DNA from: Candidatus Amesbacteria bacterium
Lineage (GTDB): Bacteria > Patescibacteriota > Microgenomatia > CAZETR01 > Amesbacteraceae
Length of the DNA stretch: 59,440 nucleotides
Direction of reading: 5' to 3'
NCBI GenBank assembly: GCA_027331445.1
Contig: DAHWUD010000001.1
Location: forward strand, 109,157 to 168,596
Shown here piece after piece: positions 2,861 to 45,442 of this stretch (the first letter of the stretch is position 1; each line of letters opens with the position of its first letter). A model generated the notes under the pieces. It saw nothing but the letters and a program-made list of their open reading frames with translations, was not told where the DNA came from and ran no database searches. A program made the translations under genes and the position numbers.

Positions 2861-4834
2861 ATGCCGCCCGATCGTCAACAGCCCCTTGTCCGCACCTTTT
2901 CCCAGCCGCCTCTTGACCTGGGTAAACTGCCCCGGCATAATGTGGCGTCTCCGATCATGAAAATCCTCACCGGGATCCTTATTGCCATCGTTGCCCTGGG
3001 TCTTCTGGGCTATATTTTTATCTTCCTTCCGGCCAAAGGCGTGTACACCGCCGTCAAGCAATTACAGGCCTCGGCTACCCAGGTGACCGTCTATATCAAA
3101 AATCAGGATTTGGCCGGTACCCAAAAGCAGCTGGGACAGGTCAAATCCAATTTGGCCAACGTCAGCCAAAAGCTTAAGCCGCTGGCCTGGACCCAGATCT
3201 TGCCTTTTGTCGGCCATTATTACCGGGATGCCAACCATGCCGTAAATGCCGGTACCGAAGTGCTGGCCGCCGGCGACGTGACTATCAATGCCATTGCCCC
3301 CTACGCCGACATTATTGGTCTAAAGGGCTTAGCGACCACCGGCAATGGGGAAAAGACAGCCCAGGACCGGATTAATTTTATTATCAATACCCTGGACAAA
3401 ATTAAGCCCCAATTGACCGATATTGGCAACCACCTGGAAGCCGCTCGCAAGGAAATGGATCAGATCGACCCCGCTGGCTACCCCGAAACTTTCCGCGGCG
3501 TCAAAGTCCGCGAGAACCTCACGACCGCTATCTCCCTTCTGGATCAGGCCACTTCCCTGGTGACCGATGCCAAACCGCTTTTAGAGTCGGCTCCCTACAT
3601 GCTGGGCTTGGATTCGCCGCGGACCTACCTGGTAATTTTCCAAAACGACGCCGAGCTGCGCCCCACCGGCGGCTTCATGACCGCTTACGCCATTATTTCG
3701 GTTAATAAGGGCAAGATTTCTACTCTCGACTCCGGTGATATTTATTCATTGGATGCCAAATTCAATAGCCAGATTCCCGCTCCCGACCCGATTATCAAGT
3801 ATTTGCCCAAAGTCCCGTATTGGAATCTGCGTGACATGAATCTATCACCCGACTTCAAAGTTTCTATGGACCAGTTCTACCCCAATTATCTCAAGACTGG
3901 TTCCCAAAAAGTTGACGGCATTATCGCCATTGATACCCAGGTTCTGGTAGACCTTCTCAAAGTCACAGGCCCCATCGGCGTTTCCGGGATCGGCAATTTT
4001 TCCGCCGATATCTATCCCCCCTGCAATTGTCCCCAGGTCTTTTATGCCCTGGAAGCTTTTGCCGACATCGAGGGCCCCGTAGTCTGGGATTCCGTCACCG
4101 GCCAGGTCATTGTCAAACCCCAAAACTACGGCCAGCGAAAATCTTTCATCGGCCCCATGATGTATTCCGTTTTGAGTAACGTTATGGCCCAGCCCAAGTC
4201 CAAAATGGGCCTCCTGTTCCAGTCCGCCATGGAATTGATCCAGCAAAAACATGTGCAGTTCTACTTTTTAGACCCCAACGCCCAAGCCGCCGCCGAATCG
4301 TTTAACTTGGCCGGCCGGATTGTCCCGGCCCCCCAGGATTATTTGTTGGTCGTCGACACCAACTTTGCCGGAGCCAAAACCAACGCCTGGGTTACCTACA
4401 CCGCCGACCAGAAAATTGACGTGGCCGGAGACGGCACGGTGACCAAAACCTTGACCCTGACTTACAAAAACCCCCAGCAATACTTTACTAACGCCTCCAA
4501 TAGTCTCAAGTTAAATGGCATTTTCCGTGATTGGCTGCGGGTGTACGTCCCTCAGGGCAGCAAATTGGTCAGCGCCGCGGGTTTTGAAACCGGCCAGACT
4601 ACCGGCACTGACCTCGGCAAGACTGTTTTTGAGGGCTTCTTCACCCTGACCCCCCTTAACGTCAAGACCATCACTCTCAAATACACTCTGCCTTTCAAGG
4701 CCAAGTCTCCTTTGAATCTTCTTATTCAAAAGCAGGGAGGTGCCAAGGACTTCCCCTACGACATTACCATTAACGGCCGCAAACAGTCGGAATTAATCCT
4801 CAACTCCGACAAAACTCTCAATCTGGGCTTCTAG
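2861..4834 (+). CDS. DUF4012-like membrane-anchored extracellular protein
   Basis: Single N-terminal TM, helical stalk, YLVIFQNDAELRPTGGF, LRDMNLSPDF, VDGIIAID and DTNFAGAKTN, which I recognise as the DUF4012 pattern. Confidence 0.8.
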   Translation: MPPDRQQPLVRTFSQPPLDLGKLPRHNVASPIMKILTGILIAIVALGLLGYIFIFLPAKGVYTAVKQLQASATQVTVYIKNQDLAGTQKQLGQVKSNLANVSQKLKPLAWTQILPFVGHYYRDANHAVNAGTEVLAAGDVTINAIAPYADIIGLKGLATTGNGEKTAQDRINFIINTLDKIKPQLTDIGNHLEAARKEMDQIDPAGYPETFRGVKVRENLTTAISLLDQATSLVTDAKPLLESAPYMLGLDSPRTYLVIFQNDAELRPTGGFMTAYAIISVNKGKISTLDSGDIYSLDAKFNSQIPAPDPIIKYLPKVPYWNLRDMNLSPDFKVSMDQFYPNYLKTGSQKVDGIIAIDTQVLVDLLKVTGPIGVSGIGNFSADIYPPCNCPQVFYALEAFADIEGPVVWDSVTGQVIVKPQNYGQRKSFIGPMMYSVLSNVMAQPKSKMGLLFQSAMELIQQKHVQFYFLDPNAQAAAESFNLAGRIVPAPQDYLLVVDTNFAGAKTNAWVTYTADQKIDVAGDGTVTKTLTLTYKNPQQYFTNASNSLKLNGIFRDWLRVYVPQGSKLVSAAGFETGQTTGTDLGKTVFEGFFTLTPLNVKTITLKYTLPFKAKSPLNLLIQKQGGAKDFPYDITINGRKQSELILNSDKTLNLGF

Positions 4835-38562: not shown

Positions 38563-38634
38563 GCCGGGGTAGCTCAGTGGTAGAGCGGCGGTATCGTAAA
38601 CCGCGGGTCGGGAGTTCAAATCTCCCCCCCGGCT
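38563..38634 (+). tRNA. tRNA-Thr(CGT), no encoded CCA
   Basis: GCCGGGG/CCCCGGC acceptor, GCGGT-atCGTaa-ACCGC, GGGAG-TTCAAAT-CTCCC. Confidence 0.92.
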
Positions 38635-38930
38635 CAGGAACTTATTGTCACCCCCACCAGATCTATGAGGGGAAAGATTTTTCTCACTTCCTGTCTGAAT
38701 TTCTCCGCCAGATTGGTAGAATAGTTTCCTCTTCCGCTGCCCTCCATCCGCGCGCACAACCTGTTTTCCGTCTCCTCAATCACCCGAACTATCTTTCTTC
38801 CCACTTCATCAAATTCCGCCTTCCCTGATTTTTGATCAGCGGCAAAGCATTTGTAAATAGGGTCAAACTCAGAAAACAATTCTTTATTTCTGTTTATCAT
38901 TTCCGCTACCGCTTCTCTATACTTCACCAT
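38634..38930 (-). CDS. Small helical hypothetical protein (start re-set to ATG 38930)
   Basis: Intact ORF (MVKYREAVAEMINRNKELF...FRQEVRKIFPLIDLVGV) with TATAAT 6 nt upstream. Confidence 0.7.
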   Translation of the reverse strand: MVKYREAVAEMINRNKELFSEFDPIYKCFAADQKSGKAEFDEVGRKIVRVIEETENRLCARMEGSGRGNYSTNLAEKFRQEVRKIFPLIDLVGVTISS

Positions 38931-38956
38931 TGCCAAATTATATCCTATGATGACTT

Positions 38957-40327
38957 ATGCCCGCTTCTTCAGAAAAAATTCTGGAGCAGATGGCCGGATC
39001 GCCGGCCGTAGCGCTGAACCGGACGGTAAAAATCGCCCGCGAATTTTCAGCCCAGGCCCCGGTGCGGAAGGCCAGACGATTTTGGCATGTTCTTGGTCCG
39101 GGATTAACCACCGGTGCCGCCGACGACGATCCATCGGGCATTGCCACCTATTCCCAACAGGGCGCGACCTACGGACTCCAGCTACTCTGGTTGGCCCCTT
39201 TTACCTTCCCGCTCATGGCCATCGTTCAGGAGATGTGCGCCCGCATCGGTCTGGTTACCGGTCGGGGATTGGCCGCCAATATTCGGCTGCATTTTCCCAA
39301 AACCCTGCTCTATCTGTGTACTCTCTTGCTCCTCTTCACCAACGTCCTGAATTTGGGCGCCGATCTGGGAGCCATGGCCAAGGCCACCCAGTTGGTCTTT
39401 CCGCAGTCCAGCTTTTTCCTTCTCGTCTTTGGCTTTACCATCGTCACCCTGCTTCTGCAGATTTTTACCAGTTACAAGGTTTACTCCCGATATCTCAAAT
39501 ATCTGGCCCTGACCCTGGTCGCCTATATTTTTTCCGCCCTGAACATCCCGCACCTCAATTGGGGTCACATCATGACCTCGGCTCTCATCCCGTCGCTCTC
39601 TTTTTCCAAAAACCAGTTAATCCTGATTACCGGCATTCTGGGGACTACCATTTCCCCCTACCTGTTTTTCTGGCAGCCGGCTCAGGAAGTAGAGGAGGAG
39701 ATCCTTAAAGGTAAATCCACTCTTAAACTGCGCCAGGAAGAGTCCACTCCCCACGAGATCAGGAATATGCGCCTGGACGTGTGGAGCGGCATGTTTGTCT
39801 CCAATCTGGTGATGTTTTTTATCATCGTGGCTTGTGCCGCTACTCTCTACTCCGCGGGTATTACCAACATCAACACCGCGGCCGACGCCGCAGCTGCCCT
39901 GCGTCCCCTGGCCGGTGAAAACGCCTATTTGCTCTTTGCCTTGGGAGTCATCGGGGCGGGGCTGCTCGCCATCCCGGTTTTGGCCGGCTCTGCTTCCTAC
40001 GCTATTTCCGAAGCTCTGGGCTGGAAATTTGGCCTGAACCGCAAACTGGGCGAAGCCTCCGCTTTTTACGGTATCATTATTATTGCCATGATTGTGGGTT
40101 TTGCCATCAACTTTATCGGCCTGGATCCCATTAAAGCCCTGATTTACTCAGCCATCGTCAACGGTTTGATCGCTCCGGTGATTTTGTTCTTCATCGTCTC
40201 CATCAGTAGTTCTGCCAAAATCATGGGCAAGTGGGCCAACCATCCCCTCGTTTCCGCTTTAGGTTGGTTTATCACAGCTATTATGTCCCTCTCAGCTGTC
40301 GCCACCCTTTACAGTTTCCTTCCCTGA
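38957..40327 (+). CDS. Nramp/SLC11-family divalent metal transporter (non-canonical motifs)
   Basis: GPGLTTGAADDDPSGI, QEMCARIGLVTGRG, GTTISPYLF. About 11 TMs. Confidence 0.9.
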   Translation: MPASSEKILEQMAGSPAVALNRTVKIAREFSAQAPVRKARRFWHVLGPGLTTGAADDDPSGIATYSQQGATYGLQLLWLAPFTFPLMAIVQEMCARIGLVTGRGLAANIRLHFPKTLLYLCTLLLLFTNVLNLGADLGAMAKATQLVFPQSSFFLLVFGFTIVTLLLQIFTSYKVYSRYLKYLALTLVAYIFSALNIPHLNWGHIMTSALIPSLSFSKNQLILITGILGTTISPYLFFWQPAQEVEEEILKGKSTLKLRQEESTPHEIRNMRLDVWSGMFVSNLVMFFIIVACAATLYSAGITNINTAADAAAALRPLAGENAYLLFALGVIGAGLLAIPVLAGSASYAISEALGWKFGLNRKLGEASAFYGIIIIAMIVGFAINFIGLDPIKALIYSAIVNGLIAPVILFFIVSISSSAKIMGKWANHPLVSALGWFITAIMSLSAVATLYSFLP

Positions 40328-40351
40328 CGGGATTGTTATATCATTAAACTC

Positions 40352-41311
40352 ATGGTGACCCCGGAACTTTCTAAATATGTGGCTGACCAGTTACGGGCCG
40401 GCTATTCTCCGGATGCCATTCGCTCCGCCTTAGTCAGCGGTGGCTGGAGTCCGGCCGATGCCGCTCAGGCCGTGGCTCCGGCTCCTCCGCCTCCCGCAGC
40501 TACAAATTCCCCGCCGCCCTCCAAAAAACAGCCTCTGCTGATGTTTTTGATTACGATTTTCATCGGCTTGGGCATCATCGCCGCCGTCTACGTTTTAAGA
40601 AAACCTGCTCCGGCCAGATTTTTGCCCCCTTCGGCTTATACCTCATCTTCTCCCGCCCCGTCCTCTCCTCCTTCTCCGACCAGTTTGTTCAAGGATCTGG
40701 GCCTCAGTTTTTCCTATGATTCTTCCTGGAAAAAAGTGGGTATGAATGGTCTTCTCACCGGCCAACCGGCAGCTTCCCCTTCCGCCGGATCGCTTCCTGA
40801 ATCTCAATACCTGTTTTTTGCTCCGGATCATTACCGGCAGGTGGTAGCAGAGCTGCAAACCCTTAATTCCTCCGCTTCCGCGACTCCCGGTTTCGACTCT
40901 GCCTCTTCCCTCCTCGGCCAAATTAGTGCTCAAACAGATTTGAGTCTGACTCTCGTCAGCCGGCAAACCGCTCTGTCCTCTGCCCAGCAAGCCACCAAGT
41001 CCCGCTGCCAGGGGGCAAACCTTAGTTTTTCCACTTCAAATCCTGTAGACAATTCGCGCATCCGGACGGCTACCGTTGCAGGTGAAGCCGCCTACTATCT
41101 GCTTCCCGAGCCCGGCTGCAGTTCTCAGACCCTGACTCTGTTTTTTGACAATCCGCTCACTTCTTCCACACCCACTTCGCTCCCCGGTATAACTATCATC
41201 GGCGGACCTCCCTCTCAAAATAATAGTTACATTATTGCTTTTCCGGCCTCGGATTTAGCGCATCTCACCTCGGATCAGCAGCTCATCCTCCAAAGCCTTG
41301 AATTTCAATAA
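40352..41311 (+). CDS. Hypothetical single-pass membrane protein (small N-terminal helical domain, Pro/Ser linkers, extracellular domain)
   Basis: QLRAGYSPDAIRSALVSGGW N-terminus, Pro-rich linker, TM, then LGLSFSYDSSW. Confidence 0.7.
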   Translation: MVTPELSKYVADQLRAGYSPDAIRSALVSGGWSPADAAQAVAPAPPPPAATNSPPPSKKQPLLMFLITIFIGLGIIAAVYVLRKPAPARFLPPSAYTSSSPAPSSPPSPTSLFKDLGLSFSYDSSWKKVGMNGLLTGQPAASPSAGSLPESQYLFFAPDHYRQVVAELQTLNSSASATPGFDSASSLLGQISAQTDLSLTLVSRQTALSSAQQATKSRCQGANLSFSTSNPVDNSRIRTATVAGEAAYYLLPEPGCSSQTLTLFFDNPLTSSTPTSLPGITIIGGPPSQNNSYIIAFPASDLAHLTSDQQLILQSLEFQ

Positions 41312-41333
41312 CCTCGTCTGATATATTTGAGTC

Positions 41334-41864
41334 GTGCTCAAACCAAATCAGGAAAAATATCTATCCACCCTTCCCACCAATATCCCTGTGGTCATAAAGC
41401 CGTACGAGCCCAAATTAAAAGCAGTTGCGGAAGAGATCATCGGACTGGTTCATAAAATCGATCCTCATCTGGAAGTACTATTTATGGGTGCTGCCGGCCT
41501 GGGAATCTCCGGCCAGGGGGACTTGGACTTGTATATTTTATGTCTCCCCGGCAAATTCGCCGGCTATCTACCGGATTTAAAGGCATTATTTGGTGAACCA
41601 ATAAAAGTAAAAGAGACTTTCATTGCCTGGGAATTTACCAGGAACGAAATTCCCGTGCAGCTGTACTTGACCGACCCCGGTGATGAAATTTATAACACCG
41701 GTATGAAAGAGCAGATTGATATATTTAACATATTAAAGAATAACCCGAGTTTACTAAGAGAGTACGCAGATCTGAAAGTTAGCCTTAATGGCCAGTCTTT
41801 AAGGGAATACCAAAGGCAAAAATATGAGTTTTATAATCGAGTGTTAAACGGAAAGCGAAGTTAA
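41334..41864 (+). CDS. GrpB/UPF0157-like nucleotidyltransferase-fold protein
   Basis: V.IKPYEP, GAAGLGISGQGDLDL (G..DxD), Y..LK......Y...K.EF C-terminus. Confidence 0.7.
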   Translation: MLKPNQEKYLSTLPTNIPVVIKPYEPKLKAVAEEIIGLVHKIDPHLEVLFMGAAGLGISGQGDLDLYILCLPGKFAGYLPDLKALFGEPIKVKETFIAWEFTRNEIPVQLYLTDPGDEIYNTGMKEQIDIFNILKNNPSLLREYADLKVSLNGQSLREYQRQKYEFYNRVLNGKRS

Positions 41865-41934
41865 GATAACAAGTCTGCAGCAATCCTCTTTTCCCCCAAG
41901 AAGAAACTATAGGTCTGTTATAATAGCGTCTATC

Positions 41935-43044
41935 ATGTCTAAAGAAATAGCCTGGGCGGAATGGAACCCTACCATGGTCTGCCCGGCCGCCTTTGCCGCC
42001 AAACAGCCTGAAATTATGGGTAAGTTTTCCGGCTGTACCTACTGTTACGCCGCTCCCGGTATGCCTCATACCCCCGAAGAAAGGCTCAGGTTCTCCCAGC
42101 AGGAGCTGTCTACCGCACAAGCGCTGAATCTATTAGACCGGTTAGCCGATAGGCACATCCCGAGGCTTTCATTTTTAGGCGGCGAACCCCAGTCCAGAAA
42201 AGATTTTGCCGCCTTAGTGGCTCATGCGGTGGAAAAATTTGAACTGGTTTCAGTCACCACCAATGGTATGGGTACTAAAAAGAACCAGGAAGCCCTAATG
42301 ACAGCCTCTGTCGTTGAAGTCAGCTTAGACTCACATGACTTTGCCATCGCCTCCCAAACTCGCCCCCCGGCAGTAGTTAAATCGGCCTTAGACACAATCG
42401 ATACCTTAAAAGACCACCCCTTTCTTTGTTTATCCTCAGTCGTCACCCCGGAATCGCTGGCCCAGCTACCGGAATTTATCAACTGGGCTTTTAAAAACAA
42501 GGGGATTAAGAGAATCAATCTCTACCCCCTCTTAGGCAGCTCAGAGGTCCCTGATCGGCTGGTGTTGTCTCCAAACCAAGCCCAAAACCTGCTTACCGAC
42601 TTAGAATCTCAATATCCTACATATGGTGAAAGAGTCTGTAAAGCCGGTCAGCATGTCGTAGTCAATCACGATGGCTCAGTCTTACCCTGTGCCGCCTTTT
42701 TGGGTGGAACAATGGATAGCGAAACCACCTGGAAAACTATCGGGCAGTTCGCAGGACATGATTTCTCGCCCCTCGCTCCGGTCGACAAGCTGGAGCCGCC
42801 GGGATGTCCGGGAAAAAAACTTTATGACTCCGGCTGGTCACGGGAAGTGATTAAGACCGGTGAAGTAAAACCGGCAGTTCAGAACGGCAACTATTGCATG
42901 CGCTGTAATTTTCCCCACCATGCTGAAAACGGCAACTGCCGGCATTGCGGTTTTGACCATTTTGACCGGACAAACATCCTGATGATGTGTTCCGCCTTTA
43001 CCGTCTACAACCCCGAATTTTTTCCCCAGGCCGGAATTATTTAA
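41935..43044 (+). CDS. Radical SAM protein with non-canonical CX17CX2C motif, SPASM/twitch-like segment and C-terminal CxxC-x10-CxxC
   Basis: C..(17)..CTYC, LSFLGGEP, VTTNG, VSLD, CKAGQHVVVNHDGSVLPC, CMRC...CRHC. Confidence 0.8.
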   Translation: MSKEIAWAEWNPTMVCPAAFAAKQPEIMGKFSGCTYCYAAPGMPHTPEERLRFSQQELSTAQALNLLDRLADRHIPRLSFLGGEPQSRKDFAALVAHAVEKFELVSVTTNGMGTKKNQEALMTASVVEVSLDSHDFAIASQTRPPAVVKSALDTIDTLKDHPFLCLSSVVTPESLAQLPEFINWAFKNKGIKRINLYPLLGSSEVPDRLVLSPNQAQNLLTDLESQYPTYGERVCKAGQHVVVNHDGSVLPCAAFLGGTMDSETTWKTIGQFAGHDFSPLAPVDKLEPPGCPGKKLYDSGWSREVIKTGEVKPAVQNGNYCMRCNFPHHAENGNCRHCGFDHFDRTNILMMCSAFTVYNPEFFPQAGII

Positions 43045-43209
43045 ATCTCCCCAGTTCGCTGGTCTTATTGCATATTTCCGGTATCGTCATCTCTGTGGTA
43101 GCTATTTAGTACTCAGTACACAAAATTAATAGCACAACGTGTGCTCTCTGAGCGGGACAGCAGATGGTGGGACAACTATTACAGCTTTTAAAAGATGGTA
43201 TGACTGAAA

Positions 43210-43536
43210 CTAGATTTCTTTTTCAGCAATTATCTTCTTTTCCAACTCGTCCATGGATTCCATAAAGGTCTTTTCTAAATTTACTCCATACTTCTCTGCC
43301 AATACCATTACACACCACAAACAATCTGATAATTCATGGGCTAACTTTTTATCGACATCTTCAATTTTCCTAATACCAGATTTCCCCATTACAAGCTTCA
43401 TCAGGTCACCCACATCTCCTACAAACCCTTCCATAATTTGTTCTCTATTCCATTCCTTTCCATACTTTTTTAATTCCATTTCAGAATACTTGCCTCGTAT
43501 CTCAACTGCCCTATGTATAACCTTTTGGAAATCCAT
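43210..43536 (-). CDS. MazG-like nucleotide pyrophosphohydrolase
   Basis: GDVGDLMK, HELSDCLW....LA..YGVNLE all-alpha NTP-PPase pattern. AT-rich. Confidence 0.8.
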   Translation of the reverse strand: MDFQKVIHRAVEIRGKYSEMELKKYGKEWNREQIMEGFVGDVGDLMKLVMGKSGIRKIEDVDKKLAHELSDCLWCVMVLAEKYGVNLEKTFMESMDELEKKIIAEKEI

Positions 43537-43575
43537 ATCCGAAGTATATCAGCTTATACCAACTATAACACTCAG

Positions 43576-43646
43576 AGCGGGATAAGGGAATCGAACCCTC
43601 TTCTCATCCTTGGGAAGGATGCATTCTACCGGTGAACTAATCCCGC
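43576..43646 (-). tRNA. tRNA-Gly(CCC)
   Basis: Reverse complement GCGGGAT/ATCCCGC acceptor, CATCC-ttCCCaa-GGATG, TTCGATT T-loop, 71 nt. Confidence 0.95.
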
Positions 43647-44883: not shown

Positions 44884-44897
44884 CCGCAATCCGCTTG

Positions 44898-44971
44898 CGG
44901 AGCCGACGGGGTTCGGACCCGCGACCTCTGCCTTGACAGGGCAGCGCTCTAACCAGCTGAGCTACGACTCC
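44898..44971 (-). tRNA. tRNA-Asp(GTC) with T-loop variant TCCGAAC
   Basis: Reverse complement GGAGTCG/CGGCTCC acceptor, CTGCC-ctGTCaa-GGCAG, G discriminator. Confidence 0.92.
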
Positions 44972-45037
44972 ATGTTACGACTCTACTTCCCCAATTTTAC
45001 TATATTTAGGCCAGATTTTATCTGCTACAATGATTTT

Positions 45038-45442
45038 GTGACCAAGCACCGGATCAGAGCCTCCGCCATTATCATAAAAGACGGTAATATAGCCCTTATT
45101 CATCGGCTTAATCACCACCAGGAATATTGGGTATTGCCCGGTGGCGGCATCGAACGGGGAGAAACTCCCCAACAAGCCGTCACCCGCGAAGTCAAAGAAG
45201 AAACCGGGCTGGACGTCATCAGTTGTACTCTGGCCTTTTATGTTAACCGCTTCTCGGAACCGGAAGTTGATCAGCCTTGCTTTTTCTGCGCCGCTTCAGG
45301 CGGAGAGCTAACTTTTACAGGCCCCGAAAACCAGCGTGACCCGCAAAATCTTTACTTTCCCGAGTGGGTCGATGTAAAAACCCTTCCGGGTATGGTAATT
45401 TATCCCGAGATGGCCAAAACACAGCTGCTTGAAATATTATGA
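45038..45442 (+). CDS. NUDIX hydrolase (start re-set to GTG 45038)
   Basis: Nudix box PGGGIERGETPQQAVTREVKEETGL. Confidence 0.92.
   Translation: MTKHRIRASAIIIKDGNIALIHRLNHHQEYWVLPGGGIERGETPQQAVTREVKEETGLDVISCTLAFYVNRFSEPEVDQPCFFCAASGGELTFTGPENQRDPQNLYFPEWVDVKTLPGMVIYPEMAKTQLLEIL

Follow-up and report, generated by a model that had tools for sequence, protein, structure and literature searches.

A gene at positions 41935 to 43044 of the 59,440-nucleotide stretch of Candidatus Amesbacteria DNA analysed here (the window) encodes a radical S-adenosylmethionine (SAM) protein with the expanded cluster motif CX17CX2C. On balance, we lean towards the view that it is a functional, horizontally mobile single-gene enzyme of the SPASM/twitch branch of the superfamily, to which MoaA, BtrN and SkfB are similar. 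The sequence supports its assignment as a stand-alone radical SAM enzyme representing a very small, apparently undescribed subfamily. The subfamily is considered undescribed because no NCBIfam model came near its cut-off and because a full-text search of the literature for CX17CX2C returned only GATA fingers and ferredoxins; this agrees with a possibility raised in the initial annotation, which had been made from the DNA sequence alone. The open reading frame (ORF) is intact and encodes 369 amino acids, and every motif that had been quoted for a stand-alone radical SAM protein was located in its translation at the given position. The features on which the assignment of the N-terminal part depends are the following:

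41935..43044, + strand: radical SAM gene (369 amino acids), assigned by the ORF, PF04055, homologues at 25-74% identity and the modelled core
41980..42045, + strand: cluster motif C16-X17-C34-X2-C37, assigned by the alignments A1 and A2, column statistics and the context of the first cysteine
42178..42189, + strand: GGEP, the 'GGE' SAM-binding motif (residues 82-85), nearly invariant in A1

The protein matches PF04055 with 49.7 bits (cut-off 29.5; E 6e-13) over residues 33-184, and its homologues reach 46-71 bits. The alignment begins at residue 33 and thus leaves the first cysteine, C16, outside. The spacing CX3CX2C, which is expected after strand beta-1 in this Pfam family, is replaced by CX17CX2C or CX20CX2C, and the core motifs TTNG and VSLD are found at residues 108-111 and 129-132, respectively. 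The NCBIfam models for MftC, MoaA, AhbC, NirJ, StsB and viperin gave weak core-level matches of at most 46 bits, all far under their cut-offs, and the distant homologues behaved likewise. No cut-off of an NCBIfam or PADLOC family was reached by the query. A search of the sequences in the PDB revealed SkfB, MoaA and BlsE as the best matches. Moreover, in an AlphaFold2 (AF2) model built from 12 sequences the core is confident, with predicted local distance difference test (pLDDT) values of 80-95 at residues 50-190, and a Foldseek search with this core retrieved MoaA, BlsE, SkfB, PqqE, SuiB and viperin with E values between 1e-10 and 1e-8, the probability being 1.0 for MoaA, BlsE, SkfB, PqqE and viperin.

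As the initial annotation had proposed, CX17CX2C is a genuine motif. The three residues C16 (TGC, 41980-41982), C34 (42034-42036) and C37 (42043-42045) are the only cysteines within the first 75 residues, and they stand in the contexts W10-NPTMV-C16 and C34-T-Y-C37. The triad is retained in all 13 full-length loop-bearing homologues (25-74% identity), the spacing CX17CX2C occurs in each of the 10 close homologues that cover the N-terminus, and the distant members have either CX17 (P0013) or CX20CX2C (P0015 and P0160). By contrast, 137 of the 149 matches from outside the family have the canonical CX3CX2C. In 133 canonical relatives the first cysteine is preceded by T at -3 (115/133) and W at -6, and in the query T13 and W10 stand at the same offsets from C16. 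Furthermore, C34-x-Y-C37-Y of the query parallels the canonical C-x-(H/Y)-C-Y. Because both contexts agree, C16 is, as judged from the alignments, the positional homologue of the canonical first cysteine, with 14 to 17 residues inserted in the CX3C spacer.

The loop itself (41983-42033, 17 residues) contains the invariant residues Q24, P25, G29 and G33. Its columns have a mean majority fraction of 0.61 compared with 0.64 for the core, and the AF2 model gives pLDDT values of 83-86 over residues 11-30. With a level of conservation equal to that of the core and four invariant positions, the loop is a constrained element rather than a product of decay. The refuting case named in the initial annotation, in which the homologues would reveal a decayed canonical gene, was therefore not encountered.

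One member of the family, P0016, has no insertion and reads CX3CX3C. Its gene (L068, 1837-2900) contains a frameshift near the 3' end, with the missing CPQCGF...MACH tail lying in the adjacent frame. As P0016 nests within the family in the tree and carries this frameshift, the loop expansion is probably ancestral to the family, and P0016 probably represents a secondary, possibly decaying loss. For the same two reasons, P0016 was ruled out as a loop-less ancestral "missing link". A PNP_UDP_1 nucleosidase-like gene lies 3' of the P0016 gene.

Few exceptions to CX3CX2C have been solved or described, namely QueE with CX14CX2C, HmdB with CX5CX2C, ThiC and PhnJ (PMC4389238). The QueE enzyme of Burkholderia multivorans, the only analogue of the loop with a known structure, binds its cluster canonically with one extended loop, which forms a surface loop beside the cluster (PMC4389238). 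Like QueE, the family described here has an insertion in the spacer between the first two cysteines of an otherwise canonical N-terminal cluster loop. However, QueE belongs to another branch of the superfamily, no QueE model was among the matches, and QueE has a minimal core that contains neither an auxiliary cluster nor a ribbon, whereas the loop of the new family comprises 17-20 residues with a Q-P...G...G pattern of its own. To judge by the title of a later study, modifications near the QueE cluster reportedly engender flavodoxin specificity. By analogy, the loop may be at least as likely to shape a reductant-facing surface as to shape the substrate site. A conserved CX17-20CX2C family would widen the range of spacings that the cluster loop is known to tolerate and would offer a natural test of whether such an insertion serves substrate shaping or reductant docking.

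The family is very rare: 5.8 billion non-redundant proteins yielded about 14 clusters. A set of 1.84 billion representatives contained eight family members, and the next matches, separated from these by a gap, were generic SPASM-group proteins. Searches of 26 genomes from the same GTDB family and 400 from the same class yielded no orthologue, and no relatives emerged when all GTDB species genomes were scanned with a sequence pattern or when viral contigs and phage records were searched. A metagenome scan yielded no loci beyond those already known. In a maximum-likelihood tree the family is monophyletic with a long stem (100/99) and splits into two subclades, both of which contain CX17 members; the nearest relatives beyond the family are SPASM proteins.

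The C-terminal part was analysed using alignment A3, which covers the last ~145 residues of 15 sequences (22-72% identity). Invariant residues in A3 are C235, K236, G238, H240, G247, C252, C291, R323, C324, C335, C338 and C352, and C321 is present in 14 of the 15 sequences. Three elements can be distinguished:

42613..42834, + strand: SPASM/twitch-type first half, consisting of the hairpin C235-X11-G247-X4-C252, a helix and the invariant C291 (A3; PF13186 in homologues)
42889..42963, + strand: zinc-ribbon-like C321-X2-C324-X10-C335-X2-C338 (A3 profile against eL40 sequences in the PDB)
42988..42990, + strand: invariant C352 in the tail M-x-C-x-x-F...NP-x-F (A3), a candidate fourth ligand of an auxiliary cluster

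The first half reads C235-KAG...DGSVLP-C252 and then G-C291-P, and its hairpin, which is invariant in A3, has the spacing CX9-15GX4C of SPASM domains. PF13186 (cut-off 21.5 bits) scores 13.6 bits with the query, 17.8 with P0006, 22.3 with P0009, 31.9 with P0160, 33.7 with P0015 and 36.2 with P0013. In the four homologues above the cut-off the match spans only profile positions 1-53 of 67 and does not include the CX2CX5CX3C block. Indeed, the seven-cysteine SPASM signature with this block and a distal cysteine is absent, and CX2C-X10-CX2C is found instead (C321-MR-C324 and C335-RH-C338). When the A3 profile was compared with PDB sequences, seven distinct eL40 (L40e) sequences came first, with a best E of 1e-5 and identical cysteine spacing, followed by weak matches to the hairpins of BtrN and SuiB at E ~0.3 (BtrN 0.25). 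The likeness to eL40 comprises C-[ML]-R-C-N, 10 residues and C-x-x-C-G-[FY]. However, the module of the new family has 35 residues and is fused to a bacterial enzyme, and the similarity may be convergent; to our knowledge, bacteria have no eL40. The NF033640 model (N_Twi_rSAM) gave 22-45 bits against a cut-off of 170, and the architecture fits the twitch type. We read the C-terminal part as a twitch-type auxiliary cluster, held by C235, C252, C291 and probably C352, together with a Cys4 ribbon that fits a docking or nucleic-acid-binding role. The Cys-rich tail noticed in the initial annotation is thus present and has been refined to a SPASM/twitch first half and a zinc-ribbon-like element that best matches eL40, while nothing supports the accompanying idea that it is a fused substrate.

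It is possible, although we regard it as doubtful, that the C-terminal part instead represents a SPASM domain that is complete but rearranged and that binds two auxiliary [4Fe-4S] clusters, with no zinc ribbon. The first cluster would be held by C235, C252 and either C291 or C338, and the second by C321, C324, C335 and C352, with CX2C-X10-CX2C replacing CX2CX5CX3C. There are eight conserved cysteines, as many as the ligands in a fully ligated SPASM domain, their order of hairpin, four-cysteine block and distal cysteine would be right, PF13186 is found in homologues and the nearest outside relatives are SPASM proteins. However, the Pfam match ends at position 53, ahead of the CX2CX5CX3C block, the four-cysteine block matches eL40 ribbons with identical spacing, and the model of the C-terminal part has ribbon-like hairpins with eL40 as the first, albeit not significant, structural match. 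BtrN, MoaA and SkfB, which provide the best sequence and structure matches, share the partial TIM-barrel core and, as part of an abbreviated SPASM domain, the CX9-15GX4C hairpin, but their family models remain far under cut-offs, and they differ from the new protein with its non-canonical cluster motif, extra Cys4 ribbon and tail. The SPASM maturases (anSME, PqqE, MftC, StsB and the NirJ/AhbD group) are the nearest outside relatives and have a comparable number of conserved C-terminal cysteines; unlike them, the query lacks the CX2CX5CX3C block and an adjacent substrate gene.

The genomic position of the gene supports its mobility. The radical SAM gene is accessory cargo in a tRNA-flanked hotspot, because the enclosing tRNA pair is empty or differently filled in relatives and because the GC content drops locally, to 0.39-0.50 over 41200-43600 compared with ~0.53 in the flanks. 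The site, as delimited by tRNA prediction, Pfam matches and the corresponding sites of relatives, is organised as follows:

38563..38635, + strand: tRNA-Thr(cgt), left cargo border
38636..43574, no strand: variable cargo of 4.9 kb between convergent tRNA genes
38957-40327: Nramp gene
41334-41864: gene for a GrpB-like protein (176 amino acids), directly upstream of the radical SAM gene
43210-43536, - strand: MazG-like gene
43575..43646, - strand: tRNA-Gly(ccc), right cargo border

The cargo also holds a gene for a 319-amino-acid Pro-rich membrane protein. The two tRNA genes are adjacent, with 2-60 bp between them, in the relatives G024, G021, G009 and G011, which represent the empty site, and the same pair encloses 2.2-5.5 kb of unrelated cargo in G002, G004, G006 and G007. 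None of the cargo genes of the source genome was found at this site in 12 relatives, and the hotspot showed neither an integrase nor direct repeats on its flanks. Moreover, the independence from neighbours noted in the initial annotation, with no partner gene and no precursor peptide in sight, holds across eight independent contexts (the window, L001, L005, L007, L035, L036, L068 and L069): an all-against-all BLAST comparison of these revealed no common neighbour and no conserved ORF of at least 30 amino acids beside the gene. A class II ribonucleotide reductase (RNR) and a PduO adenosyltransferase are encoded near the gene in L001 and L005. A functional link to them was rejected, as both belong to the conserved backbone and lie in the source genome on contig C22, which has no radical SAM gene; in its position, the radical SAM gene shows no synteny with the L001 backbone.

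Based on these features, the following mechanism can be envisaged. C16, as the presumed canonical first cysteine, would hold the SAM-cleaving [4Fe-4S] cluster together with C34 and C37. The fourteen residues that the CX3C spacer would have gained when the family arose would form a constrained excursion beside this cluster, comparable to that of the CX14CX2C enzyme QueE. SAM would be bound via GGEP and the core motifs and reductively cleaved to a 5'-deoxyadenosyl radical, which would take a hydrogen from the substrate. The auxiliary cluster could participate in electron transfer or in anchoring the substrate, and the eL40-like ribbon of C321, C324, C335 and C338, containing Zn or possibly Fe, may dock a partner. 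The substrate is the weakest step of this scheme. It is probably a molecule found in every cell because the gene moves alone, the protein has no RiPP recognition element (RRE; RiPP, ribosomally synthesised and post-translationally modified peptide) and no neighbour is conserved. A nucleotide or an RNA- or ribosome-associated target is our leading guess, owing to the ribbon and the MoaA/viperin-like core, and we hold it to be nearly an even chance; another small molecule would be a good deal less probable and a protein or peptide slightly less probable still.

A maturase of RiPPs or proteins, with its precursor or target encoded elsewhere or too small or divergent to be detected, seems improbable to us. 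This idea draws on the predominance of peptide and protein maturases among SPASM/twitch enzymes and on the matches, which include SkfB, PqqE, SuiB, MftC and StsB. However, an N-terminal RRE or PqqD-like domain, such as the RRE domain of SkfB, is lacking since strand beta-1 begins at residue 7, the eight contexts share no adjacent ORF of at least 30 amino acids, and all maturase models stay far under their cut-offs.

Just as improbable appears an enzyme that modifies nucleoside triphosphates in the manner of viperin or MoaA and that, travelling as a cassette of one gene within a variable region, would serve in defence or salvage. The top structural matches include MoaA and viperin, PADLOC pVip models match the core with 37-63 bits, and the gene is single-gene cargo between tRNA genes. 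Furthermore, nucleotide-handling genes lie nearby, namely MazG-like, NUDIX and GrpB-like genes in the window, CYTH, MBL and HD genes in L069 and PNP genes in L068 and L007. These neighbours are, however, non-homologous across contexts, and no phage or defence-island signature was found. The viperin model NF038283 gave 35.1 bits against a cut-off of 180, the pVip matches, which range from 35 to 63 bits overall, are confined to the core, and the MoaA equivalog models also stayed below their cut-offs (TIGR02666, 45.5 against 284 bits; TIGR02668, 41 against 325 bits). Moreover, viperins have no auxiliary cluster domain, whereas the protein described here has a Cys-rich C-terminal domain.

Returning to the functional, mobile SPASM/twitch-type enzyme that we favour, several observations weigh against it. 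The 140 C-terminal residues were modelled poorly, with pLDDT values of 35-60 past residue 230 of the AF2 model. The ribbon is assigned by a short profile match, the single-sequence Pfam matches to zinc ribbons are below threshold, and the eL40 chains that topped the Foldseek search with a model of the C-terminal part (pLDDT 56) were non-significant with E above 0.6. The homologue P0009 has GGGP where others have GGEP. The sequencing runs that contain the gene sequence are exclusively DNA from mine-drainage metagenomes. Finally, the supply of cofactor and electrons is puzzling. In the 94%-complete genome we found no SAM synthetase of the bacterial (PF02773) or archaeal (PF01941) type, no Flavodoxin_1 match, other flavodoxin-like families lying outside this search, and no clostridial-type ferredoxin with CxxCxxCxxxCP, for which [2Fe-2S] ferredoxins and rubredoxin were outside the search. 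Regular-expression matches for a second radical SAM protein or a ferredoxin turned out to be spurious ORFs, an ABC ATPase and an ATPase of the type II secretion system. As no SAM synthetase was found, the genome content implies that SAM would have to be imported, and that a low-potential electron donor of another kind would be used. These gaps sharpen the question of what the insertion does.

The initial annotation had also described the lineage as having few Fe-S enzymes. This is true of radical SAM genes, since PF04055 matches no other gene in the 925-kb genome and radical SAM genes are absent from 15 of 27 genomes in the same family, the others having 1-4; however, the assembly proteins SufB, SufD and SufS are present. 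Being single-gene cargo and the only radical SAM gene of a ~0.93-Mb genome of the candidate phyla radiation (CPR), the gene is a tractable expression target, although its practical impact is modest for now. A further scenario, which we hold to be quite unlikely, is that of a self-contained cassette for cells lacking flavodoxin and ferredoxin, in which the loop and maybe a rubredoxin-like Cys4 site would serve as a new electron entry and the ribbon would dock RNA or the ribosome. If true, the family would represent a hitherto unknown enzyme that modifies the translation apparatus by radical chemistry and spreads as a lone gene among CPR bacteria. The idea of a decaying or inert relic, whose stretched motif no longer binds a cluster or cleaves SAM, seems very improbable because, in spite of the lack of a recognisable SAM synthetase, flavodoxin and ferredoxin, the frameshifted, loop-less P0016 and the relative with GGG for GGE, the three cluster cysteines, the eight C-terminal cysteines and four loop residues are invariant or nearly so at identities down to 25%, the ORFs are intact in all other members and SUF genes are present.

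The initial annotation had assigned the gene a promoter of its own, and the element is indeed present:

41916..41924, + strand: extended -10 promoter-like TGtTATAAT, read from the sequence

It ends 10 nt before the ATG, and no Shine-Dalgarno sequence precedes the gene. In L007, where the homologue is 62% identical, the same type of element, ctataggtYtgKtataat, precedes the ATG by 8 nt. A two-hexamer promoter scan did not include TGtTATAAT among its sites because a -35 element is lacking. The short distance to the ATG and the lack of a Shine-Dalgarno sequence point to a leaderless or near-leaderless mRNA.

Some additional observations concern the cargo and the tRNA genes. Within this CPR family, the interval from tRNA-Thr(cgt) to tRNA-Gly(ccc) serves as a hotspot for cargo, and the cargo genes of the relatives include PD-(D/E)XK-like, G6PD/6PGD-like, HIT, HD and MazG-like genes. 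Where the GC content of the cargo is low, the radical SAM gene is flanked by the GrpB-like and MazG-like genes, a trio that is not conserved elsewhere. The 176-amino-acid ORF at 41334-41864 has a nucleotidyltransferase-like motif, GxxGxGxSGxGDLDL, and its match to GrpB is weak (E 0.0014). The Nramp-type transporter for divalent metals (Mn/Fe) shares the cargo with the Fe-S enzyme and is encoded in DNA of normal GC content; no riboswitch was detected upstream of its gene. In L035, only 4 nt separate the end of tRNA-Glu(ctc) (3086-3163) from the ATG called for the distant radical SAM homologue, which is a second case of a family gene adjoining a tRNA gene. A mis-called start probably accounts for the N-terminal extension of 27 residues in P0160. 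In the window, the NUDIX ORF (44933-45442) is listed with a TTG start that overlaps tRNA-Asp(gtc) (44897-44971) on the other strand, and the in-frame ATG at 44972, directly past tRNA-Asp, is the more plausible start.

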